Made by a program: the position numbers and the translations under genes. Below are positions 12,297-51,417 of a stretch of 64,000 nt of DNA, one piece after another. Position 1 is the stretch's first letter. Each line of letters begins with the position of its first letter. The notes beneath the pieces are model-generated. The model saw only the letters and a program-made list of their open reading frames with translations. It was not told the origin of the DNA and did not search any database. Origin of the DNA: an uncultured Planctomycetaceae bacterium (lineage in GTDB: Bacteria; Planctomycetota; Planctomycetia; Pirellulales; JAEUIK01); contig CAZBWM010000012.1 of assembly GCA_964495375.1 (NCBI GenBank), forward strand, positions 11,323 to 75,322, read 5' to 3'.

Positions 12297-13781
12297 TTAC
12301 GCGCGATCGCTAGCAGCCGTATCGCGGGACAGCAAGCGACCCGCGCCAGCAGCCGCCAAGAGCGCGACGACTGGCATCGCGGGGGCGCGCATTCGCAGGT
12401 CGCTCCAATAAACACTGTGAACTACCGAAAGCACCACGACCAAGAGCGCGCCCGCTAGCCAGGCCCCCCGGTTGGGGCCTCTTGCCGCGCCGGCCAATCC
12501 GATGGCGGCCAACGCAAACTCAGCAAGATACCAACTCGCAATCAGCCAGCGTGTGCTGGCACGCTCGAGCCGCGAGGCGTGGCCGCCGGTGTGCGCGGTC
12601 GCGTGGGGGGAAAAACTCCAGAAGCGGCCGAGCCGCACACCGGTCGCGCGGGCGAAGCCAGCGGGGTCGGCCCGCATGGTTTCGAGGGCCAACAGACGTG
12701 CGAGCCGATCTTCATCGACTTCGTTCTCGATGCCAGCGGCCTGCTTGCGGGCGAGCCAATCGTCGACGAACTCGCGCGAGTCCCAGACGGTTCCCCAAGC
12801 GCCGTTACGCGTCCAATCGTAGAAGCGCTGGTTGTTGGCCAACAGCAGCGTATAGCCGCCGTGCGTGGTAGTGACAATCGGCCGGCCAAATTGACTCCAG
12901 TTGCGGACGGCCCAAGGGGCAAGCGCGAGGGCTGAGGCGGCGGCAACCGTCGCGACGCAACCGAACTGTCGCGTACGCGTGGCTGACCAGAGTAGCCAAA
13001 CGAGCAGCAGTGCTACCCAGGGGAGAAACGTCGGCCGGCAGAGCATGGCGAGACCAAGCGAGAGACCGAGAGCCGTAGCCTGAAGTCTTGGACGCGGCGA
13101 TGCCGTCGTGAATTCGCGGCGATTCCTTCCGCTTGATACTTCGAGAAACGCAGCGAACAACGACCAGGCCACCACGGCCAGCAAGGTCGCTAGGGTTTCC
13201 GTCATCAACTGCGCCGATTGGTGGACGAGCAGCGGATCGCAGGCCACGAGCGCGGCGGCCAACAGCGACCAGCGGCCCAGCCCCCGGCGCCACCCCAAGC
13301 GCGCGACCAACTGCACCGTCAGCGCACCACAGATGACTTGCGTGAGCCCGACCAGAAACACGAACGTGCGGTACGCGTTTGCGGTCGGCAGGTGTTCGGC
13401 GATCCAGAGCAGCTTGGCCAGCAATAGCGGATAGAGCGGCGGGCGCCAGGCAGTGGGGCGACCGTCGCGCAGAAAATCTCCGTGATCCAGCAGCGACTGG
13501 GCGATCGCGCGATAACCGTCGGTATCGTGACGGAGTCCATCGGCTAGATACCAAACCGCCGCACCGCGCACGGCAATTGCCAGCACCGCGATATTCAGCA
13601 CAGTGATCGCCGACAGCGCCACGATCTGGCGACGACGACTGGCGGGCACGCCGCTCGACGGTTGGGGCAAATCCACGCGGTGGCCTGACACTGGTTGGGG
13701 CGGTTGGTCGCGGCGGCGGGCGCGTGTAAAATGCCGACCGCCCGCCGCCGGTTTTTCGATTATCCGCTCGACCACCCGCAC
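12297..13781 (-). CDS. ArnT/PMT-like (GT39/GT83-type) membrane glycosyltransferase
   Basis: Polytopic membrane protein. DTDGYRAIAQSLLDHGDFLRDGRPTAWRPPLYPLLLA is typical of dolichyl-phosphate-mannose/ArnT-like transferases. The ORF start GTG 13781 lies only 9 nt from the divergent MMPL start, so an internal start (e.g. GTG 13649, MPASRRRQIVAL..) is more likely. Confidence 0.6.
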   Translation of the reverse strand: MRVVERIIEKPAAGGRHFTRARRRDQPPQPVSGHRVDLPQPSSGVPASRRRQIVALSAITVLNIAVLAIAVRGAAVWYLADGLRHDTDGYRAIAQSLLDHGDFLRDGRPTAWRPPLYPLLLAKLLWIAEHLPTANAYRTFVFLVGLTQVICGALTVQLVARLGWRRGLGRWSLLAAALVACDPLLVHQSAQLMTETLATLLAVVAWSLFAAFLEVSSGRNRREFTTASPRPRLQATALGLSLGLAMLCRPTFLPWVALLLVWLLWSATRTRQFGCVATVAAASALALAPWAVRNWSQFGRPIVTTTHGGYTLLLANNQRFYDWTRNGAWGTVWDSREFVDDWLARKQAAGIENEVDEDRLARLLALETMRADPAGFARATGVRLGRFWSFSPHATAHTGGHASRLERASTRWLIASWYLAEFALAAIGLAGAARGPNRGAWLAGALLVVVLSVVHSVYWSDLRMRAPAMPVVALLAAAGAGRLLSRDTAASDRA

Positions 13782-13790
13782 CCGCCACCC

Positions 13791-16043
13791 ATGCCGCTGA
13801 CGACTATTTCCGAGCGCATCACCGCGGGGTTGATCCGTTGGCGAATGCCGCTATTGGCGACGGCGGTCGTCGCCACGCTGCTGTCGGTGCGGCCGGCCGG
13901 GCGGTTGGGTTTCGATCGTTCGGTCGAAAACATGTTCGCCCCTGACGATCCGCTGATGGTCCCGTACCAACAGCTCAAGCGGACGTTCGGCGGCAACGAG
14001 ATCGCGTTGGCCGCCTACGTCGACGAGGACCTGCTGACGACGGGAGGGCTCGCGCGGCTCGGCGATTTGACGACAGCGCTGGCCGGCGTGTCCGGCGTGC
14101 AAAACGTGCTCAGCTTGTCGGCGGTGCCGTTCGTGGCCGAGTTCTTGGACAAGCCCAACCAGTTGCAACCGCTGTTGGATGTGTTCGAGGGCTATCTGAT
14201 CAGCAAAGACCGGCGCACGGCAGCCGTGGTCTGCATGCTGGCCCCCGAAGAGGATTCGAACAAACGAACCGAAACCGTCAGCCTGCTACGCGAGCACGTC
14301 GCCGAGCATGACCCCACGGGTGTGTTGACCGGCGAGCCGGTGATGGTGTGCGAGGGCTTTCGTTCATTAGAAGAAGATGGCGAGCTCTTGGGGCGCGTGT
14401 CGACGGCGCTGTTGATGCTGACGATTGTGCTCTGTTTTCGCAGCTTGCGCTGGGTGATCGCGCCGGTGGCCGTGGTCGTCGCGGCCCTTTGGATGACCAA
14501 GGCTGTGCTCGTGCTAGGTGGCTTTCACCTCAGCATGGTCAGCAGCATGCTGTGGTCGATCATCACGGTGATCGGCGTGGCCCACGTGGTCCATATCATC
14601 GTCAAGTTTCGCGAGGAGCGCGAAAAAGGGACGACGCCACGCAGCGCGTTCTTGGCCTGCGGCAGCATGCTGACCGTGCCGATCATCTGGGTCTGTTTGA
14701 CCGACACCGCTGGCTTCGCGTCGCTGCTGGCCGCCAAGGTGGGGCCGGTGCAGGATTTTGGCGCGATGATGGCGATCGGCTCGGTGCTGGTGCTGCTGTG
14801 TATCGCGCTGGTACTGCCGGGCATTGCGCTGTTGGGCAAGTTCGACGCCGATCCGCATCGTGCCTGGGGCGAAGAGAATCTCGATCGTGGATTGCACGAC
14901 ATCGTCTACTGGCTCGAGCGGCGGCCGCGCACCGTCGGTTTCACGGCCCTGGCGTTTATCGCCGTGTCGCTGATTGGATATCGCTGGCTGGAGGTCGAAA
15001 CCGACTTCACGAAGAATTTTCGCGCGTCGAGCCCGGTGGTCAAAAGCTACCAGTTTGTGGAGACCAACCTGGGGGGAGCCGGCGTGTGGGACATCTTTCT
15101 GCCGATGCCGGCCCAAGTCGACGCGGCATTCTTCCAGCGCGTGGGGGCGCTCGAAGACGACTTGCGCAGCCAGGTGCGCGTGCTCAATGAACAGGGCGAA
15201 ACAGTGCCGGGCCTGACCAAGGTGCTCAGCGTGGTCGACACGCTCGACGCGATGCGCAAGAGTTTCACCGCGGCGCTGGCCGGCTCGAATTTGTCGCTAG
15301 AGACGATGCTGCCGGTCGACGAGTTGTTGAGCCAGTTCCGCACGACGATGCCCGGCGCGCACGGCGCGCTGGTGGGGCGCGATCCGGTTGATGGAAAGCA
15401 GTACCTGCGGATCATGCTGCGCGCCCGCGAGCGCCAGCCGTCGGCCCAGAAGAACGTGCTGATTTCCCAGGTGCGCGAGGTGTGCGCCAAGCACTTTGGC
15501 GAGGAAGCCCGCGTGACCGGCTTCTTCGTGCTGTTGACGAACCTGATCGACAGCATGATCCGCGACCAGTGGGTGTCGTTCTTGATCGCCACGTCGTCGA
15601 TCTGGCTGATGATGGTCGTGGCCTTCCGCAGCGTGCCGCTGGCGGTGATCGCCATGATCCCCAACGCGCTGCCGATCATGGTGGTGTCGGGGTTGATGGG
15701 CTGGCTGGACGTGCGGATCAACATGGGAGCGGCCATGATCGCGGCCGTGTCGATGGGGCTGGCCGTCGATTCGTCGATTCACTACATCTACGAATTCCTC
15801 GACGCGCGGCGCGACGGGCTCGGCGTCTACGCGGCGATCGACCGGGTACACCAGAGCGCCGGCCGGGCGATGGTCTTCTCGACGTTGTCGCTGGTCGTCG
15901 GCTTCAGCGCGTTGGTGTTCAGCCAGTTCGTGCCGCTGATTTACTTTGGCGTGCTGATGGGGCTATCGATGATCGGCGGCATGCTGGGCAACTTGATTTT
16001 GTTGCCGCTGCTCTTGCGATTGTGGTCGGGCGAGCGGTTTTAG
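13791..16043 (+). CDS. MMPL/RND-superfamily exporter (two 6-TM SSD-like bundles)
   Basis: ATG 13791 (MPLTTISERI..) in frame within ORF 13695..16043. Two repeated TM bundles with large periplasmic loops. Motifs LLMLTIVLCFRS and SFLIATSSIWLMMVVAFRS are typical of the MMPL/HpnN-like family. Confidence 0.8.
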   Translation: MPLTTISERITAGLIRWRMPLLATAVVATLLSVRPAGRLGFDRSVENMFAPDDPLMVPYQQLKRTFGGNEIALAAYVDEDLLTTGGLARLGDLTTALAGVSGVQNVLSLSAVPFVAEFLDKPNQLQPLLDVFEGYLISKDRRTAAVVCMLAPEEDSNKRTETVSLLREHVAEHDPTGVLTGEPVMVCEGFRSLEEDGELLGRVSTALLMLTIVLCFRSLRWVIAPVAVVVAALWMTKAVLVLGGFHLSMVSSMLWSIITVIGVAHVVHIIVKFREEREKGTTPRSAFLACGSMLTVPIIWVCLTDTAGFASLLAAKVGPVQDFGAMMAIGSVLVLLCIALVLPGIALLGKFDADPHRAWGEENLDRGLHDIVYWLERRPRTVGFTALAFIAVSLIGYRWLEVETDFTKNFRASSPVVKSYQFVETNLGGAGVWDIFLPMPAQVDAAFFQRVGALEDDLRSQVRVLNEQGETVPGLTKVLSVVDTLDAMRKSFTAALAGSNLSLETMLPVDELLSQFRTTMPGAHGALVGRDPVDGKQYLRIMLRARERQPSAQKNVLISQVREVCAKHFGEEARVTGFFVLLTNLIDSMIRDQWVSFLIATSSIWLMMVVAFRSVPLAVIAMIPNALPIMVVSGLMGWLDVRINMGAAMIAAVSMGLAVDSSIHYIYEFLDARRDGLGVYAAIDRVHQSAGRAMVFSTLSLVVGFSALVFSQFVPLIYFGVLMGLSMIGGMLGNLILLPLLLRLWSGERF

Positions 16044-16163
16044 AGTTCGCTCGCGGCGAGCAGCATTTCGCGCGACGTGCTCTCACTCAAGCCCAGGGCA
16101 CAGGCGCGACCGACTCTGCGCCAATGCCTGACGTTGCCGCCATGCCCTGGGAGGCGGCTACAT

Positions 16164-17885
16164 TCAACTTCCCGATCCGTTTGCCGGCCGCGGCGGGGCG
16201 GCCGGCGCTGTTTGTGCAGCAGGCTTGCGCGGCGCGGGACGCGGAACCGTTGGACTGGCTACAGGAGTTGCCGGCGGGTTGGCCACCGGCGCGGCGCTTG
16301 GCTGCCGGGGGCGTTGCGGCGCGGTGGGAGTCGCGGGCTCGTTGGTCGGACTGGCGGCCGCGCCCCCACCAACCGGCATCAAGAAGTTCAGCTTCTCTTG
16401 CCCCATGTTGGTCCAGAAGGTGCCGGGCCCGCTGTGGAACAGCCGCAGTTGCACGTTGGGGTTGAGCTGGTCGGCGAGTGAGTAGCGAAGGAAAGCGTCA
16501 GCGTCGTTCTGAAATGCCGCCAGCGTGAGCGGGAAGAGCGTGTTGTCGGCCGTTTCACGGAGCTTGACGACGGTGGCCTCGGCCTCGCCCAACAGTTGCG
16601 TGCGCTGGGCGTCGAGCTGCGCGATCTTGGCGCCGTAGTCGGCCTTGATTTTCTCGATCTCAGCCTCGACGCCGGTGCCGAGGTTTTCGACGTCGCGATC
16701 GAGCTCAGCCACCATGCGACGGGTTTCGGCTTCGACCTCGGCCACGCGTTGCTTGATCAACTGCTGCTCACGTTCGACGTCGGCCTCGCTTTGGGCGGTC
16801 GCCTCTTTGGCCTTGTTGGTGCGCTCGGTTTCGGCGGCGATCTGTTTATCGCGAATCGGCTGCAGGTAGTTTTCGGGGATGACGATATTGCGAATGAACG
16901 CCGAATGGACGGTGACGTTCTTCACCTTGCAAACGCGCGTCAACTCGTCGGTGAACTCGGTTTGAAAGCGCTCGCGCTTCGAGCCTTCGAGAAAATCTTG
17001 CACGCCGTAGTCGATGCCCTTGTCGCGGCCGATGGCGTGGGCTTGCACGTCGACCACGTTCTGTTCGATCCGCTCGCGGGCACCGTACTCGGCCACCAGG
17101 TTCGGCATGTCGCTGGGCAAAATCTCCCATTCGATCGTGCAGTCCATGCTGATCTGAAAACCACCCCGGCTGGTGAACGTAATGGCGGTATTCTGCTGGG
17201 GATCCTGGTCGTAGCGGAAGGTCGTCTGGAAGATGCCCACCTTGGTCGGCAGCACTTCGTATTCGCGGGTGTTGAGGTAATACAACCCCGGCTCGAGCAC
17301 CTGGGGAACGATCCCCTGGTGCGCCGGAGATTCAGCGAAGCGGCCCTGGCTGGGTAGCCCCAATTTGCGGCGTAGCACGCCGACAAAACCGGCCGGAATA
17401 TCGACGGCGTCGACCAACTCGACGTCGTAGCCATGTTGATTGATGCGGTAAGTGCCCGGCGGCAGCACGTCGCGACGGATGCCCCGCTCTTTGTCGCTGA
17501 TCGCCAGCACGCGCCCCGGCGGTAGCGGTTTGCCACCTTTCGCGGTGACGACGCCAACCTTGCCGGCCGGCACGGTGAGATTGTCTTCGAGTTCCCAGGT
17601 ATAGAGGATCGGCATCACGAAGTGCCAACCCTCGCCTTGCACTTCGCGGAGCACGCCTTTCTGGCCGCGCTCAGCAAGAACTTCATCGGCCGGAAGCTGC
17701 GCGCCTTCTTTGGCCACGATTACGAGATGCTTGCCCTGCGGCACGTAGGCAAAGAACTCGTTCCAGGCGAGCAAGAACAAGACCAACAGCGAGAAGGTAA
17801 GCACCGCCAGCACGATCAAGCGCCGCCGCCAAATCTTGAAATTGAAGGAGCGGCCGCGGGCGGAGAAGTCAAATGCCTGACTCAT
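16164..17885 (-). CDS. SPFH (band 7/flotillin-like) domain membrane protein with coiled coil and Pro/Ala-rich tail
   Basis: N-terminal TM LIVLAVLTFSLLVLFLLAW. SPFH core (GKHLVIVAKEG..GWHFVMPILY; ITFTSRGGFQISMDCTIEWEI..; VTVHSAFIRNIVIPENYLQPIRDKQIAAE). Long coiled coil. Paralogous to 18267..20120. Confidence 0.75.
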   Translation of the reverse strand: MSQAFDFSARGRSFNFKIWRRRLIVLAVLTFSLLVLFLLAWNEFFAYVPQGKHLVIVAKEGAQLPADEVLAERGQKGVLREVQGEGWHFVMPILYTWELEDNLTVPAGKVGVVTAKGGKPLPPGRVLAISDKERGIRRDVLPPGTYRINQHGYDVELVDAVDIPAGFVGVLRRKLGLPSQGRFAESPAHQGIVPQVLEPGLYYLNTREYEVLPTKVGIFQTTFRYDQDPQQNTAITFTSRGGFQISMDCTIEWEILPSDMPNLVAEYGARERIEQNVVDVQAHAIGRDKGIDYGVQDFLEGSKRERFQTEFTDELTRVCKVKNVTVHSAFIRNIVIPENYLQPIRDKQIAAETERTNKAKEATAQSEADVEREQQLIKQRVAEVEAETRRMVAELDRDVENLGTGVEAEIEKIKADYGAKIAQLDAQRTQLLGEAEATVVKLRETADNTLFPLTLAAFQNDADAFLRYSLADQLNPNVQLRLFHSGPGTFWTNMGQEKLNFLMPVGGGAAASPTNEPATPTAPQRPRQPSAAPVANPPATPVASPTVPRPAPRKPAAQTAPAAPPRPANGSGS

Positions 17886-17920
17886 GGAAGTTCGATCCGT
17901 AAAGGGTTGGATGCGTTCTA

Positions 17921-18215
17921 GGTCTAGTGGTTAGCCTGCGGTGAGCTTGTCGAACCGTGGCGAGTGGTCAGCCTGCGGCCCTCGGTCGGATCCCCAGGTC
18001 GGTCGCCTGATCTGTTACTCCACTGCTCGCGGCCACAGGCCTCTTCAATAAAGTTGCCCGGGAATTTGCGTCCGGGTGCGTCCGGGTGACTTGATGTGCG
18101 ACGATAAATCAAATGGATGCAACACCTTAGGGCGACAGGTGTCCGCCCAATTTTGCGTCCGGGTGATCGTCCGGCTTGCGTCCGGGTCCTAGGGTTTGCG
18201 TCCGGGTGGCGGGGC
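17921..18215. repeat. intergenic element A: array of TTGCGTCC-GGGTG direct repeats, paralogous to 26976-27230
   Basis: TTGCGTCCGGGTG at 18066, 18153 and 18196. TTGCGTCCGGGTC at 18176. CGTCCGGGTG at 18079. CGTCCGG at 18168. Shares ACTCCACTGCTC (18017-18028) and the lead-in CTCTTCAATAAAGTTGCCCGGGAATTTGCGTCC with element B. Confidence 0.7.
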
Positions 18216-18266
18216 CGTGGCTTGACTCGAGTGCAAACGTATTCTCTGACCAATCGCCACGACTCA

Positions 18267-20120
18267 CTACTCCGGCACTGGCGTGACGACCGGAGGCGCG
18301 GCCGCCGAAGCCGCCTCGGTCGTCGTCGTTGGTGATGTTGTCGGTTCGACCGTCGGTTCGCTGACTGGCACGGTCACGGGGGCAATCGTCGGCGGCGCCG
18401 GTTGGTTCGCCGGCGGTTGCCGCGTCGTCATGTATTCGGCGACCAGACGGGCGAACTCGCTGTCGTCGGAAGCAAAAATCTCCGAGATCGCCGGACCCAG
18501 CCGCGACAGAATCTGATACTGCGCGAACTGCTGGGCACTACCGAAACCGTCGACCGCCGTCTGCAAGCCCGAGACGGTCGCCTCGTTCTGCAACTGAATG
18601 ACCGCGGCGTCAGCGCGGCCGTGGGCCAGCGTGGCTTCGGCCTGCTGGCGGGCCGCGTCGAGTGTCACTTGGGCATTGGTCAGATCCTGCCTGAGGCGCG
18701 ATTCTTCGACTTCGAGCATTTGGGTGGCCTTGGTCTTGGCCTGCACGACGCGCGTCTCGGCTTCCACTTTTTCGCGAGCCTGCTGCTTGAGCGCCTCCTT
18801 GGCCTTGAGTTCTTGTTCGGCCTGATACTGGCGAAGCCGCACCACGTTTTTCTCGCGCTCGACCCGGGCAAGTTCACGCTGCGAGATCTGATCAGAAAGC
18901 TCATCGGGAGGTCGCATGTCGGCCAAGGTCACGGCGCGGACATCGACCCCCATTTCGGTGCAGCGTGGTTTAACCTTGGAGAGCAGGGCCTTCTGCAATA
19001 CTTCGCGCGCGTTCGTCGGTTTGACGGGGGGCGTAGCGGCAACGACGGGCTGACCCTCGGCGGGCTCAGCAGCGGCGACCGGAGCGGCATCAGGCTTCGC
19101 GGCTTCGTCAGGCTTAGCGTCGGCTGGCTGCGCGGCGCCCTCGCCTGCGGGTGCGGCCGGCGGCACGATGTCCTCGGGTTCGGCGGCCGTGAGAATGAAA
19201 TCGCGGGCGTCGAAGTTGCTTCCCTCGATCCGCGCGTAGCCGCGAATGTGGGGCAGAATCACCTTCTGCAGCACTTCGTTGGCTTGCTGCTCCTCGGGGG
19301 TGCTGTCCGCCTGGTGCAAAATCCCCTCGTCGGTGATGCGGACCAACAACTGCGAGGCGCTCTCGGGCCGCACGGCGTACTCGACGACGACATAGGGCTT
19401 AATGATGAAGCCGTCGCGCGAGGGGAATTCGATGTCGCCCAACCCCACGCGATGACTGCGGATATCGATCGGATCGATCGTCTCGACGTAGGGATTGATG
19501 TAGTAAGTGCCCGGCGGCAGTGGTTTGTCCTGTACGCCGCGATAGCCCTCGGGGACGGTGTAGGGATTGCTGCGCTCGTTGGCGGCGAGCTGGCTGGGGT
19601 CTTTGCCGATCTTGAGCGTGCGCACGCCGACCTGATTGACTTTGACTTCGCGGGCCGGCACCTTCTCCCACGTGTAGGCGTAGGGGTTCAGTCGGTAGCT
19701 GCCTGGCACGAGCACTTCCTTGACGATGCCGCGTTCCTTCTTGGGCTCGTCGCGAGCGAGAATATCGCCGGCCTCGATCCGCTTGTGATCGATCGGCTCG
19801 CCGTACATCCGTGTCAACACCAGGCACTGCCCGGGCTCTACATAGAGCAGATCCTTCATTTCATAGGTCCAGAGGATCGGGTTCAAAAAGTGCCGACCTT
19901 CGGGAAGCACGTCGAGCATGACCCCCTGGTAGCTCGCGTCGCGAGCGACGATATCCCCTTCAGGAAGTGGTGTACCCCAGCGATGGATGACTACCAGGAA
20001 CTTGCCGGGGGGGACCTCGATGCGCTCGATTTCCCAGTGCCAGATTTGTTGGACGATGCCCAGGCCGACGATCAGGGCGACCAGCGTGGTCCAGAAGCGC
20101 GCTCGTTTGTAGAAAGACAC
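18267..20120 (-). CDS. SPFH (band 7/flotillin-like) domain membrane protein, paralog 2
   Basis: GTG start 20120. TM TTLVALIVGLGIV. PPGKFLVVIHRWG..GRHFLNPILW SPFH entry motif. Coiled coil (RELARVEREKNVVRLRQYQAEQELKAKEALKQQAREKVEAE). Thr/Pro/Ala-rich C-terminal tail. Confidence 0.75.
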   Translation of the reverse strand: MSFYKRARFWTTLVALIVGLGIVQQIWHWEIERIEVPPGKFLVVIHRWGTPLPEGDIVARDASYQGVMLDVLPEGRHFLNPILWTYEMKDLLYVEPGQCLVLTRMYGEPIDHKRIEAGDILARDEPKKERGIVKEVLVPGSYRLNPYAYTWEKVPAREVKVNQVGVRTLKIGKDPSQLAANERSNPYTVPEGYRGVQDKPLPPGTYYINPYVETIDPIDIRSHRVGLGDIEFPSRDGFIIKPYVVVEYAVRPESASQLLVRITDEGILHQADSTPEEQQANEVLQKVILPHIRGYARIEGSNFDARDFILTAAEPEDIVPPAAPAGEGAAQPADAKPDEAAKPDAAPVAAAEPAEGQPVVAATPPVKPTNAREVLQKALLSKVKPRCTEMGVDVRAVTLADMRPPDELSDQISQRELARVEREKNVVRLRQYQAEQELKAKEALKQQAREKVEAETRVVQAKTKATQMLEVEESRLRQDLTNAQVTLDAARQQAEATLAHGRADAAVIQLQNEATVSGLQTAVDGFGSAQQFAQYQILSRLGPAISEIFASDDSEFARLVAEYMTTRQPPANQPAPPTIAPVTVPVSEPTVEPTTSPTTTTEAASAAAPPVVTPVPE

Positions 20121-20200
20121 GGTTTAGTCCTGTCGTGGTCAGTGTTCGGTTTTCAGTGGGCAAGTTCGGCGCATCGGCAAGCGGTGAATCGAGTGGCGTG

Positions 20201-21019
20201 TTAGCCGTGGCCGTTGGTTTCGCTTTGGGTTCGTGGACGTGCGGGCGACGGCGCGGTTTCGGCAGCCGCCTTTTCTTTCAGGGTGCGATCGAGATCGGCG
20301 CGGAGCTCGGCCAATTGGGCTTCGAGCACGGCGGGGTCGATGGTCGGTTGACCGGGCACAGCCAGATCGGCGGTGTCGGCGAAGACGCGTTCCATGGCGC
20401 GGGCCGTGAGGGCTTTCTCTTGCACGAGCCCTTCGGCCTTTTGCCAATCGGCCACGGCATTGAACGGATCGAACTGGTTGGCGATCGCGTACTGCTGTTC
20501 GGCGGTTTCGGCCTCGGCCAATTGGCTGAGCAAGATGCTCCGTCCGACTTCGTACTGGCGCAGTTGCAGTTCGAGCAAGTAAAGCCGGCGGCGCGACTCG
20601 GCCATCAACTTGCGCTGCCGCTCGAGCTGCGCACGGAAGTTCTCGATCGCCATCCGCTCGAGGTTCAGCTTGTAAAGATCGGCCTGGGCGCCGAGCGCGT
20701 CTTGATGCGCGGCGTGCTCGCGAGCTTCGCGCTCAAGCGTGCCGACGCTGGCTTCGCTTTGCTCGAGGTTGCGCACGAGATCGGCCTCGGCGACTTCGGC
20801 CTGGGCGACGGCCTTGCGCACCGCAGCCACGTGCTGCTGATGCTGGCGCACGACCTGCGTGAGGATCTCTTCGGGATCGAGCCGTTTCTGGGTGACCCAT
20901 TGCCAGGCCCGCTTGACGCCGCTCCACAGCCGCCGCGGGCCAACGACCAGCATCAGCAGGATCAGCGGCAAGCCGAACAAGAGCACGAGCCGGATGATGA
21001 GTCGATCGAGAAATCCCAT
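20201..21019 (-). CDS. PspA/IM30(Vipp1)-like coiled-coil protein with N-terminal transmembrane helix
   Basis: ATG 21019 (MGFLDRLIIRLVLLFGLPLILLMLVV..) inside ORF 20201..21601. After the TM comes DPEEILTQVVRQHQQHV.., then about 200 aa of heptad-rich helix laid out like PspA (DPxxL.. helical hairpin .. FDPFNAVADWQKAE). Confidence 0.55.
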   Translation of the reverse strand: MGFLDRLIIRLVLLFGLPLILLMLVVGPRRLWSGVKRAWQWVTQKRLDPEEILTQVVRQHQQHVAAVRKAVAQAEVAEADLVRNLEQSEASVGTLEREAREHAAHQDALGAQADLYKLNLERMAIENFRAQLERQRKLMAESRRRLYLLELQLRQYEVGRSILLSQLAEAETAEQQYAIANQFDPFNAVADWQKAEGLVQEKALTARAMERVFADTADLAVPGQPTIDPAVLEAQLAELRADLDRTLKEKAAAETAPSPARPRTQSETNGHG

Positions 21020-21470
21020 GCGGGCGCTTTCACGGAGTACGGCGAACCAGCGAGGCGCACAGTGGAGCTGCTCGCTTGCGGTCGATGTGTCAAAGGTAGC
21101 TTTCCCCGATTGTAGGGGGACGCAGCCGGGCTCGCCAACTTTGCAATCCGTGCCCCGCGGCAGCGTGATGCCTAAAGTCAACATCGCGGTGCGGTTGTGG
21201 CGCGTGATGTACCGTGGCGCTGGCAGCCGCACTAGGAAGCGCGCTGCCACGACGGCCGAACTTTTGACCGCATGGCGATCGTGAGCTATCCGTTTCAGTA
21301 GCGACTGTTTTCGTCGAGGGCACTCGCCCGCGCGCCGACGCGTGATTGGTAGTTCGTCAGTGTGCGGCACGACTGTCGTGCCTTCGGGGTACAGCATCGT
21401 GCTACCGGATCGGCCGGCAGCGGCGCTGCGGTCGCTGTGTATTGAACTCCTGGAATTGAGCCGAATCCCG

Positions 21471-25965: not shown

Positions 25966-26975
25966 CGTCGAACTTAGCGCTGGTGACCGTCGATCAACTG
26001 GTGCGCGACACGTTTCGGCAGTCGCGCGCGCAAGGGGTCTTTTGGCTGCTGTTGGGGATCTCGGCGGTCTGCATCCTGCTGTGCGCCAGCGTGAGCATCG
26101 ATGGGGCCGTGCAGTTGGCCGGGCCGGGCGAAAACCCCGACTTTCTGCCGCGCACCGAAGCGCAGGCCCACGACAAAGAGATCCTCAAGCGCGACGGCGT
26201 GGCCGTTGTCGGCGGCGACCTGTCGCTTGGCTTTGGGGCCGTGCGGGTGCCGCTGGCGCGCGACGCGAAACATGCCGTCCACGCGCTGCAATTGGCGCTG
26301 GCCTCGGGCGTGGCCGACACGCTCGGCGTGCTCTTGGCATTGGTGTGGACCGCTGGGTTTCTGCCTGGCTTCTTGGATCGGCAATCGATCAGCGTGTTGC
26401 TGGCCAAACCGGCGCCGCGCTGGGCGCTGCTCTTGGGCAAGTACGCCGGCGTGCTGGCCTTCGTGCTGTTTCAAGGAGCGATCTTCGTCGGTGGCACCTG
26501 GTTGGCGCTCGGCGCACGCACCGGCATCTGGGATTTTGCCTACTTGAAAAGTGCTCCGTTGTTGCTGTTGCACTTTGGGATTTTCTTTAGCGTTTCGTTG
26601 TTGTTGGCGGTCTGCACGCGTAGCACCGTGGCGAGCGTGTTCGGCTCGATCGCGTTCTGGCTGATGTGCTGGGGAATGAACTTCGGCCGGCACGCCTTGG
26701 TGGCTGACGTGGCCGCCGGCAGCGGCGCCGAGTTCGGCCAACCGCTGTTGGGCATCGTCGAGTTCGGTTACTGGTTCCTACCGAAGCCGGCCGACCTGGG
26801 GATCTTGGTCCGCGACGCGCTCAAAGCACAAGACTTCTACAGCCAGCCGGCCGCCTTCGACTTCGTGCAAGCGCACGGGCAGTTCCACCCTGTGTGGTCA
26901 GTGGCCGCCTCGCTGGCGTTCATGCTGTTGATCTTCTGGGCAGCCGTGCGGCAGTTCGTGGCGACAGACTACTGA
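25962..26975 (+). CDS. ABC-2-type transporter permease
   Basis: ATGA overlap with the ATPase gene. About 6 hydrophobic segments with a large first extracytoplasmic loop. Confidence 0.7.
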   Translation: MTSNLALVTVDQLVRDTFRQSRAQGVFWLLLGISAVCILLCASVSIDGAVQLAGPGENPDFLPRTEAQAHDKEILKRDGVAVVGGDLSLGFGAVRVPLARDAKHAVHALQLALASGVADTLGVLLALVWTAGFLPGFLDRQSISVLLAKPAPRWALLLGKYAGVLAFVLFQGAIFVGGTWLALGARTGIWDFAYLKSAPLLLLHFGIFFSVSLLLAVCTRSTVASVFGSIAFWLMCWGMNFGRHALVADVAAGSGAEFGQPLLGIVEFGYWFLPKPADLGILVRDALKAQDFYSQPAAFDFVQAHGQFHPVWSVAASLAFMLLIFWAAVRQFVATDY

Positions 26976-27230
26976 GTAGTGGCTAGTGCTCAGTGGTTAG
27001 TGGTTCGAGAACACCACTCCACTGCTCAACTGATATCCTGCTCACCTTCTCGCCGGCAGGGCGCACCCCTCTTCTATAAAGTGTTCCGGGATTTTGCGTC
27101 CTAACCGTCCTAAGCCCGACAAAACAGCACCTAAAGCCTTGCCAGGTTAGCACTTGACCTTAGGACGCAAAACCGAAAAAGCTTGCGTCCTAAACCGTCC
27201 TAAGAGGGCCGTTTTGCGTCCTAAGCCTGA
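26976..27230. repeat. intergenic element B: array of TTGCGTCC-TAA(G) repeats, paralogous to 17921-18215
   Basis: TTGCGTCCTAA 27094-27104 followed by CCGTCCTAAG 27105-27114. Inverted copy cttaggacgcaaaac 27159-27173. TTGCGTCCTAAA 27183-27194 followed by CCGTCCTAAG 27195-27204. gttttgcgtcctaag 27211-27225. ACTCCACTGCTC at 27016-27027. Confidence 0.7.
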
Positions 27231-27259
27231 ATCGCGAAGCCTTGGACGATGAAGATTTT

Positions 27260-27336
27260 GACCACGGATGACACCGATCGCACGGATGGTTGAATTCGTG
27301 TTCCGTTCATCCGTGTGATCCGTGACATCCATGGTC
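27260..27336. repeat. imperfect palindromic 'CACGGATG' hairpin element
   Basis: gaccacggatgacaccgatcgcacggatgg versus the reverse complement of ccgttcatccgtgtgatccgtgacatccatggtc. Arms are roughly 80% complementary. Confidence 0.5.
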
Positions 27337-27708
27337 AACGTGGTCTTGGTTTTTGATTCGCGCGGCGAGTCGTGCTTAGCGCTTGGTCATCGTGGTGTCG
27401 TTGTGGTGACTCTCGATGCGGCGCATGTTCTGGCGGCGCGCAAAATGCCAATGCATCCACAGAAGAACACGCCGAAGGACACAGAAGTTCGATCGGTGAT
27501 GCCGTTGGGCGTGGCCACGATCGTTCTGTGATCGTCTGCGCCTTCTGCTGATGTATTCTGTAATTGTTGGCGCGCACGGCGAGCGGGCTCGCGCCAAGCC
27601 GACCCCTTGAACGCATGCGTGCGTGGGCTCCTTGGTGGCAAGTATTTGATTGCAGTCCGCGGCGCGCACCGTATGCGCACGCGGAATTGACTCGCGTCCC
27701 CTTTCGTG

Positions 27709-27790
27709 CCGACGGTGTCAGGAACCACCTCCGACGACGTGCAAGGCACTGGATCGTCGTAGGCTCGGCGGTTCCAGACACCGATTCCGG
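27709..27790. repeat. degenerate 4th copy of the GGTGTCAGGAACCG palindromic element
   Basis: Left arm gccgacggtgtcaggaacca, right arm cggttccagacaccgattccgg. One stem mismatch (A where the other copies have T). Confidence 0.5.
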
Positions 27791-27930
27791 AGCGACTCGC
27801 GTGCCCGGCGCGCATCGCTGGTTTTCGCCGCGTAGCGGCGACGTCGACTTCGAGATCGCCGTGAACTCGCGACCACACAGCAGCGACAATGTCGCCACTG
27901 CGCGGCTTGGTCTTCGCTGAACGTCGAGTG

Positions 27931-27974
27931 TCCGTGGGTTTCACCCACGGCTAAACGCCGCGGCCGCTACGCGG
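27931..27974 (+). repeat. 44-nt CCGTGGGTTTCACCCACGGCTAA..GGCCGCTACGCGGC unit (left, inverted partner at 28576-28621)
   Basis: About 80% identical to the reverse complement of 28576-28621. Contains its own 7-bp hairpin ccgtggg/cccacgg. Confidence 0.6.
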
Positions 27975-28434
27975 CCAAGGACACACGACGATTTACGTCA
28001 GACCATGCGAGCGCGCACGGAAATCGCTTGCCGAAAGCCATCGCTCGACCTTTCGATCGCGCTGCTCCGGAGGAACCGGATTGCGGCGCATTCCTTGCGG
28101 AATTGCACACAATCGGGCACAAAGCTCAACGGGCCGCGATCGGGGCCGATCGGCAGTTTGCGGGCAAATGGCCGGGTCTATCGCCCAGGCCATACCAGCA
28201 TCCTAGGCGCCGGGTGGCTCAGTGTCAATATGTTTTGGAACACCTTTTTGTACATTATTCTCGGAGTTCGAGCCACGATGGGGGCTGGCAAAAACGCCAG
28301 GCTTTGCCCCAATGGCCGCGAGGCTCGCAAGAGATTTCGACAGCGGCCAGCGCAATCAGGCATCGCCCAACACGTTGCATCGACCAAGATCGGGCGGAGC
28401 CTGACTCCCGGCGGCAAACGTCTCGCAGAAAGAA

Positions 28435-28462
28435 GTCTCGCGCAAAGGCGCGAAGGCGCAGA
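28435..28462 (+). repeat. TCTCGCGCAAAGGCGCGAAGGCGCAGAG short repeat (second copy at 37663-37690)
   Basis: The two 28-nt copies differ at only 4 positions (tctcgcgcAaaggcgcGaaggcgcAGag versus tctcgcgcCaaggcgcTaaggcgcGAag). Confidence 0.55.
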
Positions 28463-28575
28463 GCAACGAGGCGGATCAGGATTTCCCGCCCGGCCATTTG
28501 CGGTTGCGGTTCGTCGAGCCCCAAAGGGGATCGGAACTTTCAGCCCAGCGGTTGTCACACAGCGACGATTGCATT

Positions 28576-28621
28576 CGCCGCGTAGCGGCCGAAAGAGCTT
28601 AGCCGTGGGGTGAACCCACGG
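28576..28621 (-). repeat. right inverted partner of the 27931-27974 unit
   Basis: gccgcgtagcggccgaaagagcttagccgtggggtgaacccacgg. A partial third copy ttcgccgcgtagcggcgac lies at 27824-27842. Confidence 0.6.
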
Positions 28622-28720
28622 AACCGTTCGCGAATAGGCGAACAAGCCGCGCAGCGGCGAGAGACAGTGTAGTCATCGCCCTCCGCGTGATGAATCTTCG
28701 TGGAGTGAGCTGAGCAAGAC

Positions 28721-28756
28721 GAGACCAGGGGCTGCGCCAGTGCGGCTATTGACGGT
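28721..28756 (+). repeat. GAGACCAGGGGCT..GGCTATTGACGGT 36-nt direct repeat, copy 1
   Basis: gagaccaggggctgcgccagtgcggctattgacggt versus 29063-29098 gagaccaggggcttccgccacctggctattaacggt. Confidence 0.6.
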
Positions 28757-28892
28757 TAGGGCGCCAGCCGTTTGAGAGCTTGGAACGTATATCGCTGCGC
28801 GGCTGGCGCGAACTGGCGGGGCAACGTCAACTCGCCCTCGCTGGCGCGTCGGGTTCGTGTTGGTGCGCCGCATCGCACGCGGGGCTGCGCCA

Positions 28893-28966
28893 GGGGAACG
28901 GGAGTCGTTTCCGGCCTGCGTCGTCGATGTGTTCTTGGTCGTCGCCCGGAAACGACTCCCGTCCCC
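28893..28966. repeat. GGGGA(A)CGGGAGTCGTTTCCGG long-stem hairpin element (family copy 1)
   Basis: Left arm 28893-28914 and right arm 28946-28966 are complementary over 21 bp with one bulged A. The loop is 31 nt. Confidence 0.7.
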
Positions 28967-29062
28967 TTCAGGCTTGCGGCGGCATCACGTGCCGCAACAT
29001 CGCTAGGCGCGTCAGGGCGGTTTTCTGTCGCCCCGGTTGGGGCTTGCGCTCGATTGCGCGAT

Positions 29063-29098
29063 GAGACCAGGGGCTTCCGCCACCTGGCTATTAACGGT
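29063..29098 (+). repeat. GAGACCAGGGGCT..GGCTATTAACGGT 36-nt direct repeat, copy 2
   Basis: See 28721-28756. Confidence 0.6.
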
Positions 29099-29137
29099 CA
29101 CGGCGTTGTCGTTCATGCAGATCAATAGCATTGCCGA

Positions 29138-29222
29138 GTCGCGCGCGAGGCAACGGCCCCCTCACCCCTAACCCCTCTCCCGCAAGGGGAGAGGGGAACC
29201 GGATGTTGCGTCGCGCGCGAGG
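29138..29222. mobile_element. candidate miniature insertion: 59-bp CCCTCACCC/GAGGGG hairpin element (family copy 3) flanked by a perfect 13-bp direct repeat
   Basis: gtcgcgcgcgagg occurs at 29138-29150 and again at 29210-29222. The enclosed 29151-29209 starts caacgg and ends ccggatgttgc (short terminal inverted match) and contains ccctcacccctaacccctctcccgcaaggggagaggggaac. Confidence 0.4.
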
Positions 29223-29226
29223 CCTA

Positions 29227-29329
<103 letters not shown>

Positions 29330-29344
29330 AGGCTAGCCGTTCTA

Positions 29345-29743
29345 CTAGAACGAAAGTCCCTCGACGTCGGTGGCTTCGGCCAGGAGCTGCGCGAAACTCA
29401 TCGCCCGCGTCTCGATGCACGTGAAGGGGCAGTCGCTGCCGGCGGCGGCGACAATTAGCAGCTCATGAACGCGCGCGACATAGGCCGGCAGCAGCTCGAG
29501 CGCCTCGGCAGCGCTCGTTGGTTCTTTGCCGATTTCTTCGTAAACGTATTGAACTCCGTCGACGATACTGAGCTCGCAGACGATTGCCTGAAGAACGGAC
29601 AGGCTACCCACCCAGCTCAGGATCAGGTTTTCCTTGTACACTTCAAGCTCGCCATCAATCAACGGCGCAACCTCTGCGATCGACCGTCGCAAATAGTCGA
29701 CGATCACCAGCGCTGCATTCAGTCCGCGGTCGAAGTCGATCAT
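29345..29743 (-). CDS. hypothetical acidic 132-aa protein
   Basis: ATG 29743, 23 nt after the stop of the PQQ-propeller gene. Coding-like GC3. No motif recognised. Confidence 0.5.
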   Translation of the reverse strand: MIDFDRGLNAALVIVDYLRRSIAEVAPLIDGELEVYKENLILSWVGSLSVLQAIVCELSIVDGVQYVYEEIGKEPTSAAEALELLPAYVARVHELLIVAAAGSDCPFTCIETRAMSFAQLLAEATDVEGLSF

Positions 29744-36604: not shown

Positions 36605-36686
36605 CCGAACGGTGCCAGGAACCGATTCAAGCAGCGCGTCACCCCGTTGCTATGCATCGATTGAAACGGTTCCTGGCACCGATCGG
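36605..36686. repeat. 82-bp palindromic element CCGAACGGTGYCAGGAACCGATTCAAG..loop..GAAACGGTTCCTGRCACCG (copy 1)
   Basis: The arms pair at 24 of 26 positions. This copy has C/G (gccagg/cctggc) where copies 2 and 3 have T/A (gtcagg/cctgac). Confidence 0.75.
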
Positions 36687-48870: not shown

Positions 48871-48951
48871 CCGAACGGTGTCAGGAACCGATTCAAGCAA
48901 GGCCTCACCAACATCTGGGCAACAATGGAAACGGTTCCTGACACCGTTCGG
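48871..48951. repeat. palindromic GGTGTCAGGAACCG element (copy 2)
   Basis: ccgaacggtgtcaggaaccgattcaagc...ggaaacggttcctgacaccgttcgg, with a 20-bp perfect stem. Confidence 0.75.
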
Positions 48952-51335: not shown

Positions 51336-51417
51336 CCGAACGGTGTCAGGAACCGATTCAAGTACGTGCCAACGATTAGAGACTTGCCGGTTGAATCGGT
51401 TCCTGACACCGATTGGG
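51336..51417. repeat. palindromic GGTGTCAGGAACCG element (copy 3)
   Basis: ccgaacggtgtcaggaaccgattcaag...ttgaatcggttcctgacaccgattggg, with a 21-bp perfect stem. Confidence 0.75.

Follow-up and report, generated by a model that had tools for sequence, protein, structure and literature searches.

The 64,000-nt stretch analysed here (the window: positions 11,323 to 75,322 of contig CAZBWM010000012.1, assembly GCA_964495375.1, from an uncultured Planctomycetaceae bacterium) contains two related elements, A and B, and element B, which follows the open reading frame (ORF) of an ABC-2 permease ending at position 26975, carries a perfect 15-bp inverted repeat. We found that B belongs to a family of dispersed repeats of about 165 bases, non-coding and non-autonomous, which in the sequences sampled is restricted to a single Pirellulales lineage. 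The inverted repeat of B consists of two full-length copies of the motif of this family placed face to face, and its origin by chance is excluded. The way in which these motif copies are conserved leads us to favour, tentatively, a reading in which they would form the multi-site docking array of a mobile mosaic repeat, read by a trans-acting sequence-specific DNA-binding protein.

A first-pass annotation of the window had taken B for a second, paralogous copy of element A and had interpreted its inverted repeat either as a long hairpin, if transcribed, or as a symmetric protein-binding site. Re-reading of the sequence showed that all of the motif coordinates given for B are exact, and the relationship with A was borne out. 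The core of B extends from 27076 to 27225. An inverted-repeat search showed that the inverted site and site 3 (Table 1) form two arms of 15 nt, 100% complementary and with 37 nt between them, and that a 13-nt perfect inverted repeat also exists between site 1a and the inverted copy. Perfect inverted repeats of at least 15 bp within 100 nt were present at six loci of the window and at none in 10 shuffles. The sequence TTGCGTCC was found 10 times in the window instead of the 3.7 times expected, eight of these occurrences being within elements A and B, while the 26-nt leader pattern gave two matches in the window and 0 in 100 shuffles. A 21-nt, 81% complementary match of the site 1 doublet to positions 28744-28764 was judged to be likely due to chance.

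Copies of the family were gathered with the leader pattern ATAAAGTNNNCCGGGAWTTTGCGTCC in the genome collection and with a slightly looser pattern in metagenome contigs, so that copies without the canonical leader fall outside the set. The 24 loci found in the genome collection all belong to one metagenome-assembled genome (MAG), Pirellulales bacterium JAIESQ01; 51 metagenome loci matched the looser pattern, and the leader pattern had no match in viral contigs. The MAG, the metagenome contigs and the window together gave 83 full-length copies, of which 74 are distinct (L-numbers such as L014 and L081 label the collected loci; L083 is a MAG locus). The search of Rfam release 15 at gathering thresholds returned no family for the window and only one tRNA for fourteen loci, and a scan of 26900-27400 at E values up to 10 returned only generic hairpin (microRNA-model) matches far below threshold. 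The repeat element, including the motif itself, is undescribed in the literature that we searched by full text. Assemblies break within copies, several of which are located at contig ends, and the Logan assemblies of the window organism break about 120 nt past the ABC-2 stop codon, within B.

Comparison of the copies revealed a common plan. The leader ATAAAGTGTTCCGGGAAT is followed by the site 1 doublet, of the form TTGCGTCC-xxx-CGTCC-xxxx, and by an interior that measures about 45-60 nt; next come the inverted site and, after an A-rich spacer of some 10 nt, site 2, which is a triplet in the G class (defined below) and a doublet elsewhere, and lastly site 3. The motif, (T)TTGCGTCC-N-AAG or TTGCGTCC-GGGT, is 12-15 bp long and is present five to six times per element at fixed positions, one copy being inverted. 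The distances from one CGTCC start to the next were 9, 78-79, 10-11, and 18-20 nt in the non-G copies and 10, 77, 12, 11, and 19-20 nt in the G class; the gap between the clusters was thus constant at 77-79 nt even though the interiors cannot be aligned between classes. The leader and the sites were near-invariant across classes and genomes, while the interior was about 50% identical between B and the T-class copies of the MAG. The same was seen with 26 aligned G-class copies from several genomes, the six forward sites and the leader of which were essentially invariant while the interior varied. The ATAAAG of the leader was degenerate in several otherwise intact copies, and the G-class arrays of the MAG comprised one to three units of about 78 nt.

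The bases located after CGTCC divide the family into suffix classes. GGGT(G), the G class, accounted for 42 of the 74 distinct copies, including element A; the other suffixes were TAAG (T class, including B), AAAG or AAG (A class), CGG, CAAAA (one copy) and GAAG (one copy). In 69 of the 74 elements, all five to six sites carried one and the same base (T, A, C or G) immediately after CGTCC, the inverted site included in the T, A, and C classes, and this base varied between elements. When only the non-G elements were considered, the four direct sites and the inverted site agreed in 27 of 31, while shuffles gave a mean of 0.66 and a maximum of 5. Homologous composite repeats at the same locus differed in the suffix base, which is a thymine in the window and an adenine in L081. 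Site 2a was TAGA, a slot-specific suffix variant, in nearly all T-class copies of the MAG. Two hybrids of the MAG (L014 105-274 and L024 40-209) have a T-class 5' half identical to the MAG T-class interior; the 3' sites of L014 are of the A class and those of L024 partly of the A and partly of the T class, and such hybrids indicate recombination between classes. The base or bases 3' of TTGCGTCC might be the barcode of a homology-checked or self-templated process, which we consider unlikely; either the crossover nucleotides of two partner sites would have to agree for a recombinase or transposase to act, as is the case for the spacer variants of lox, or all of the sites would be regenerated from one template copy.

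An intact inverted site, at the same offset and matched to the class of the element, was present in 29 of the 32 non-G copies. The inverted repeat is therefore conserved in the family and no local accident, and its absence from all other copies, which the first-pass annotation had named as a ground for refutation, does not hold. Comparison of the inverted site with site 3 showed that 92.8% of the cells were paired and that 30 cells were changed on both sides, compared with 10.8 ± 2.5 in shuffles (0/500), and comparison with site 1b gave 93.5% of paired cells and 26 cells changed on both sides, compared with 7.8 in shuffles; this co-variation is entirely at the level of classes and comes down to some four to six events, the counts being inflated by relatedness. 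Pairing fell to 31-47% when the inverted site was slid out of register with site 3. The complementarity of the inverted site was longest with site 3 (mean of 12.2 Watson-Crick bp, up to 16), followed by site 1a (mean of 11.0). Since the inverted site is intact in most non-G copies and site 3 is its best partner, the 15-bp repeat of B represents the norm of the family. The alignment of copies, which the first-pass annotation had proposed in order to tell covariation from simple identity, thus showed co-variation of the inverted site with the direct copies at class level only.

The G class differs at this position. The inverted-type block of element A (CCTTAGGGCGACA) mismatches the forward GGGT suffix of A itself. 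The corresponding block of the class, CTTGGGGCGA, on which 22 to 26 of 26 copies agree per position, is not complementary to the forward GGGT sites, and its reverse complement, CGCCC-C/T-AAG, is an NAAG-type site, literally TAAG in element A. The family consensus at the inverted position is CAAG, not TAAG; the A that gives TAAG was found in four of 26 G-class copies, and the full motif in three of those four. The origin of A from a B-like (TAAG) ancestor, suggested in the first-pass annotation, is not supported. The proposal that A kept a TAAG-type inverted copy and has GGGTG on its forward copies only is therefore correct for A and applies, as NAAG, to the whole G class.

The folding of B was compared with that of shuffled sequences. 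Positions 27150-27230 gave z-scores of -2.7 (plus strand) and -2.2 (minus strand) as RNA and of -3.7 and -3.6, respectively, as DNA. Positions 27088-27180 folded at -42.7 kcal/mol on the minus strand (z of -6.2) and at -26.7 kcal/mol on the plus strand; on the minus strand only, the interior of B forms an 11-bp helix with four G-U pairs, which other copies do not have. Several A-class copies have an interior G-U helix on the plus strand instead. No excess folding was seen when G-class elements were compared with dinucleotide shuffles (mean z of +0.11 and -0.39), nor for element A (z of -0.39 and +0.53). RNAalifold found no compensatory pairs in 26 aligned G-class copies, where it kept invariant G-U helices, and in non-G copies it kept only the helix between the inverted site and site 2a. 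Helix extension by G-U and by A-C pairs was equal, giving no strand-specific RNA signature, and the interiors showed no conserved fold, single-sequence folds differing from copy to copy.

Table 1. Features of elements A and B and of adjoining modules, in window coordinates
Feature	Positions	Strand	Remarks
Element A, copy of the GGGTG (G) class: leader and forward sites 1a, 1b, 2a, 2b, 2c, 3	18048-18208	+	
Inverted-type block of A, CCTTAGGGCGACA	18126-18138	-	18126-18136 read CCTTAGGGCGA, reverse complement TCGCCCTAAGG
Heptad-repeat hairpin module with GTAG start: GTAGTGG CTAGTGC TCAGTGG TTAGTGG ... CACCACTCCACTGCTC	26976-27033	+	directly after the ABC-2 stop codon
5' module: CT-rich CTGCTCACCTTCTC, small GC hairpin GCCGGCAGGGCG, then CCCCTCTTCT	27034-27075	+	common to most metagenome copies
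Leader of B, ATAAAGTGTTCCGGGATT, with near-palindrome TTCC-G-GGA	27076-27093	+	better conserved than any other part, in all suffix classes
Site 1 doublet, TTGCGTCCTAA+CCGTCCTAAG: 1a TTGCGTCCTAAC, 1b CGTCCTAAG	27094-27114	+	CGTCC starts 9 nt apart; position fixed in all copies
Interior spacer of B	27115-27158	+	length conserved, sequence not (about 50% identity between genomes)
Inverted full-length site, plus-strand letters CTTAGGACGCAAAAC	27159-27173	-	class-matched in 29/32 non-G copies
Site 2 doublet, TTGCGTCCTAAACCGTCCTAAG: 2a TTGCGTCCTAAA, 2b CCGTCCTAAG	27183-27204	+	inside the spacer of the 15-bp inverted repeat
Site 3, full-length site GTTTTGCGTCCTAAG	27211-27225	+	best partner of the inverted site
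Hairpin module M1, CACGGAT-repeat arms (31 nt, 87% complementary)	27258-27338	+	with A/T-class elements at five other loci
Hairpin module M3, CACAGAA / TTCTGTG-repeat arms	27454-27553	+	part of a composite repeat of about 700 nt

Element A is located between two minus-strand Band_7 genes and element B between the ABC-2 permease gene and a 2.4-kb stretch (26976-29345) that is packed with repeat modules and gave no convincing coding signal in a test of GC content at third codon positions (GC3). The gene contexts of 26 sites were convergent (9), divergent (6) or tandem (11), near the random 1:1:2 and with no orientation preference, which argues against a role as a terminator or in a 3' or 5' untranslated region. 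No sigma-70-like promoter was found in the element. The two intrinsic terminator matches to the consensus were weak (0.7 expected), neither of them being at the 15-bp inverted repeat, and the T-run after M1 was not conserved in paralogous copies. In 42 of 60 loci, the strand that is locally richer in G was the one bearing the top strand of the element (p of about 0.003), a modest bias to which some duplicate contigs contribute. The plus strand of the window is G-rich throughout, its cumulative GC skew rising monotonically (mean of +0.05), and 22 of the 32 likely genes are on the minus strand; since the skew holds for genes of both strands, it reflects a strand (replication) asymmetry and not coding.

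Comparison with close relatives, a check proposed in the first-pass annotation, showed that both A and B are insertion-polymorphic. Orthologous loci were reached via Band_7 homologues, with 84-91% amino-acid identity in close relatives and 68% in L086. The spacing of the Band_7 genes at site A was 381 nt in the window, 118 nt in L081/82, 170 nt in the MAG locus L083, 92 nt in L084/85, and 61 nt in L086, and none of these relatives has a CGTCC element there. Element A sits within a heptad-repeat hairpin that the relatives hold intact; comparison of the filled site of the window with the empty sites of L081, L083, and L084 thus places the insertion in this hairpin. At site B, the window has a T-class element with M1-M4, L081/82 an A-class element with M1-M4, L050 a G-class element, a C-class element, an A-class remnant and M4, the MAG locus L083 77 nt and no element, and L084 unrelated DNA. 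The interval homologous to 26976-29345 measured 77 nt in L083, 367 nt in L084, 730 nt in L050, and 920 nt in L081, and these differences in length identify 26976-29345 as a hypervariable intergenic island.

The docking of a sequence-specific DNA-binding protein, which we tentatively favour, is suggested by the conservation of the sites and the leader as sequence and not as pairing (the G-class sites are invariant and no compensatory pair was found), and by their geometry, with doublets spaced by 9-12 nt (about one helical turn), 18-20 nt to site 3, and the constant 77-79-nt gap. The independence of the elements from transcription units, their insertion polymorphism and the uniformity of the sites within most elements point in the same direction. 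The sites would be read by sequence, the two members of a doublet would lie on one helix face, and the interior, conserved in length, would serve as a spacer or bend, an arrangement that would resemble the sub-terminal sites of transposases and recombinases or the iterons of Rep proteins paired with an inverted operator. Candidate recognition duplexes would be TTTTGCGTCCTAAG (with the +1 variants A, C, and G) and TTTTGCGTCCGGGTG. The nucleotide or nucleotides just 3' of CGTCC could act as a compatibility barcode that would have to be the same at all sites of one element, and the hairpin potential would be a by-product of the inversion of one site. The symmetric protein-binding site put forward in the first-pass annotation is thus the alternative that the comparison of copies appears to favour, while the long hairpin, although possible, is less supported, as neither a G-U signature, a promoter, a terminator nor an excess of folding in the G class was found. 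Several observations weigh against the docking of a protein. No candidate reader protein was identified among the neighbouring genes, no neighbour gene recurs (an all-against-all BLASTP of 547 ORFs gave only large housekeeping paralogue families), and a crude regular-expression search of the 689 kb of sequence examined found no Y1/HUH-like ORF. No terminal inverted repeats were found, the leader having no inverted 3' partner in any copy, and no target-site duplication could be defined, the flanks of the filled and empty sites being too diverged. A protein reading only the octamer would leave the identical next base at all sites of an element unexplained, whereas six suffix types (TA, AA, CG, CA, GG, and GA) would mean many cognate proteins. 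Two properties of the sequence as RNA go the same way: the G-class 10-mer CGUCCGGGUG is self-complementary as plus-strand RNA (six G-C and four G-U pairs, about 1/256 by chance per class), GGGUG being the wobble equivalent of GGACG, and non-G elements fold better than shuffles (mean z of about -2.1 on both strands, -2.2 to -6.2 for sub-regions of B), as any inverted repeat would on both strands.

These last properties would fit a single-stranded hairpin switch, the main rival explanation, which we consider only somewhat less likely. The inverted copy would pair, in RNA or single-stranded DNA (ssDNA), alternately with 1a/1b, enclosing the interior, or with site 3, leaving the site 2 doublet in the loop, and the element would be a small RNA or riboregulator, or the folded ssDNA substrate of a Y1/HUH transposase similar to the RAYTs (transposases associated with repetitive extragenic palindromes, REPs). 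With alternative partners for the inverted copy, the suffix would have to match at all sites, and the inverted copy does co-vary with every direct copy, its complementarity being longest with site 3 and 1a. Besides the z-scores of the non-G elements and of 27150-27230, this explanation draws on the finding that, among the large classes, only the one with a forward site palindromic as RNA lacks an intact inverted copy, on the G-rich position of the top strand, which is expected for ssDNA-based insertion, and on the many REP families and Y1 transposases of R. baltica and other Planctomycetes (PMC3733652, PMC6006769). It is weakened by co-variation that is class-level only, without G-U versus A-C asymmetry or a conserved interior fold, and by the G class, to which 42 of the 74 distinct copies belong and which has z-scores of about 0 on both strands and a conserved yet non-complementary inverted block. 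Hybrids with mismatched halves persist (L014, L024), no promoter, terminator or nearby Y1 gene was seen, a 37-nt loop on a perfect 15-bp stem is unlike known REP hairpins, and the GC-skew bias is modest, with duplicate contigs included. A functionless selfish or decaying repeat, made uniform without any reader by concerted evolution (slippage, unequal exchange, gene conversion), is improbable: the varying unit number of the G class (1-3), the hybrids and the hypervariable intergenic islands would agree with it, but the leader and the sites are near-invariant between genomes while the interior drops to about 50% identity, and the conservation of slot-specific suffix variants and of spacings argues for purifying selection on sites and geometry. 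We give very little credence to a REP-like 3'-end element of the ABC transporter operon that would terminate transcription or shield the mRNA from 3' exonucleases. B does begin right after the ABC-2 stop codon, with hairpin modules next, and REPs are mostly downstream of genes (PMC3733652); however, the family has no 3'-end bias, six of 26 sites are between divergent genes, orientation with respect to the upstream gene is random, A is upstream of a gene start, the M1 T-run is not conserved, the terminator matches are weak, and an orthologous ABC operon of the MAG has no element at all. An equally slight chance was assigned to a local cis-regulatory array, in which the direct repeats would be operators of a response regulator or the leader an extracytoplasmic function (ECF)-type promoter. 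Direct repeats about one helical turn apart resemble boxes of the OmpR/PhoB type, and the leader TAAAG-N15-CGT is loosely like TAAAT-N16-CGT, which is found in the promoters of iron-starvation sigma factors; against this, the genes beside one copy are unrelated to those beside another, many sites are located between convergent genes, elements are present or absent at orthologous loci without a change in gene content, and ATAAAG is degenerate in several intact copies.

Several known identities were also considered and rejected. A Tn3/Tn21-type inverted repeat (GGGGG...CAGAA...TAAG in the MAG leader) was discarded because the GGGGG part is missing from the window and metagenome copies, and a resemblance to a Tn7 end (ACAATAAAGT) was dropped. 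A CsrA sponge (reverse-strand GGA motifs) leaves the suffix matching unexplained, the spacing and the degenerate ATAAAG of intact copies do not fit an ECF promoter, and the architectures of IS110 bridge RNAs, IS200/IS605 guide pairs, attC sites, CRISPR-like arrays and tRNA-like folds are unfit.

On its sequence organisation, the element behaves like the mosaic repeats of the BIME, NIME, and BOX types and differs from them in that a single short motif, with a suffix coded by class, is repeated in a fixed array. Bacterial interspersed mosaic elements (BIMEs) of E. coli and Neisseria intergenic mosaic elements (NIMEs), built on REP or dRS3 units, are likewise non-coding intergenic mosaics of short hairpin-capable modules in dozens of copies, with sub-types that coexist in one genome and islands that vary between strains, and here too short modules occur in variable order within intergenic islands. 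Their core is a tagged palindrome of 20-40 nt, whereas here an array of five to six motif copies, mostly direct, follows a leader, with no 3'-end bias and no associated RAYT seen. The BOX elements of Streptococcus pneumoniae (boxA-boxB(n)-boxC) are also modular, intergenic and variable in internal unit number, but their sequence is unrelated and they have neither a reiterated short recognition motif nor a class-coded suffix. REPs are defined as 20-40-nt units with an unpaired tetranucleotide tag, a 6-13-bp stem and a 2-5-nt loop, mostly downstream of genes (PMC3733652). In Planctomycetes, R. baltica among them, several REP families and numerous Y1 transposases have been reported (Di Nocera et al. 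2013, PMC3733652), including 'class 3' Y1/HUH transposases flanked by atypical high-copy structures (PMC3733652, PMC6006769). The family shares with CGTC- and GTAG-tagged REPs (PMC3733652) the CGTC of its motif and the GTAG start of the flanking heptad hairpins. In a CGTC REP, the CGTC tag is unpaired, the stem of 8-9 bp starts with A-T pairs, and a loop of 4-5 nt and a CCA tail complete the unit (PMC3733652); our sites are 12-15 nt long without a local stem-loop, the only hairpins are those of the inverted site with 1a (55-nt loop) or site 3 (37-nt loop), CGTCC is inside the paired region in the non-G classes, unlike a REP tag, and the positions of the sites relative to genes (convergent 9, divergent 6, tandem 11) show no preference for downstream locations.

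Iteron arrays with an inverted operator (Rep-type plasmid origins such as pPS10, F, and R6K; geminiviruses) also combine direct repeats, phased at about one helical turn, with an inverted copy and have lineage-specific variants of part of the motif that give specificity classes; here there are dozens of chromosomal copies, no adjacent rep gene, AT-rich unwinding element or DnaA boxes, and the elements lie beside housekeeping genes, such as those for Band_7 proteins and the ABC transporter. Multi-site transposon ends (Tn7 with TnsB, Mu with MuA) and miniature inverted-repeat transposable elements (MITEs) have close-spaced sites and an unconstrained interior, or are small, non-autonomous and insertion-polymorphic. 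The family is itself small, non-coding, multi-copy and polymorphic for presence and absence, but it has no pair of inverted termini, its inverted repeat being internal, no detectable target-site duplication and no cognate transposase that we could find.

The elements are accompanied by other repeat modules. The 5' module, the site array and M1-M4 make up the composite of about 700 nt, which recurs at other loci with 76-87% identity, modules M1-M4 coming after A/T-class elements at five loci besides B, and tandem G+A, G+T, and G+C elements were seen beside heptad and M1-M4 modules. The small GC hairpin of the 5' module co-varies among copies (GGCCGCAGGCC, GCCGGCACGGC, GCCCGCAGGGC). Tandem-heptad hairpins, (T/C)(T/C)AG(T/G)GG and often with a GTAG start, are found after stop codons and between genes (window 26976-27033 and 17921-17975, L081 9883-10000, L083 9831-10000, L084 9909-10000) and resemble cyanobacterial short tandemly repeated repetitive (STRR) heptamers or REPs with a GTAG tag. 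They evolve fast and were seen at orthologous and at paralogous sites; between the orthologous Band_7 genes, every relative has such a hairpin, with different heptad sequences. Two inverted copies of a module of about 85 nt (..GCCGCGTAGCGGC..CCGTGGGTTTCACCCACGGCTAA..), at 27824-27978 and 28574-28660, surround about 600 nt with a 202-aa ORF that has no Pfam match, and 27824-28660 looks like a nested MITE-like insertion; the GCCGCGTAGCGGC/CCGTGGGTTTCACCCACGGCTAA module was also found in L028, L046, and L075. A dispersed hairpin family with perfect arms of 15-21 bp on CGGTGTCAGGAACCG / CGGTTCCTGACACCG is located at 36610-36681, 48871-48951, 51341-51411, and about 27716-27783, with related copies in L046. 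Two intergenic 17-bp perfect inverted repeats were found at 2724-2814 (AGCCGAAGAATTACTTT) and 28894-28966 (ACGGGAGTCGTTTCCGG), the module that holds the second being common to L007, L010, and L066/72, and a hairpin with CTCACCCCTAACCCCTCTCCCGCAAGGGGAGAGGGGAAC, a GC-rich palindromic module, at 29139-29220. The 21-kb L086/L087 locus of the relative with 68% amino-acid identity has no CGTCC element; an island at 12888-21357, downstream of its Band_7/PspA cluster, contains a phage-type integrase gene, a Toprim/AAA_25 primase-helicase-like gene and an HTH_17 gene.

Planctomycete genomes are large, with long and largely uncharted intergenic regions, of which this family is a concrete and easily recognised building block. 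Its elements break short-read assemblies, and their class content per locus differs between relatives, which makes them potential strain markers. If the sites are read by a protein, the family would point to an as yet unrecognised system of transposition, recombination or chromosome organisation with a compatibility code of one to three bases, and a barcode process, if true, would represent a novel type of module for recombination or mobility in Planctomycetes. Should the element function as RNA, the family would add multi-copy riboregulators to a phylum in which almost no small RNAs have been characterised.

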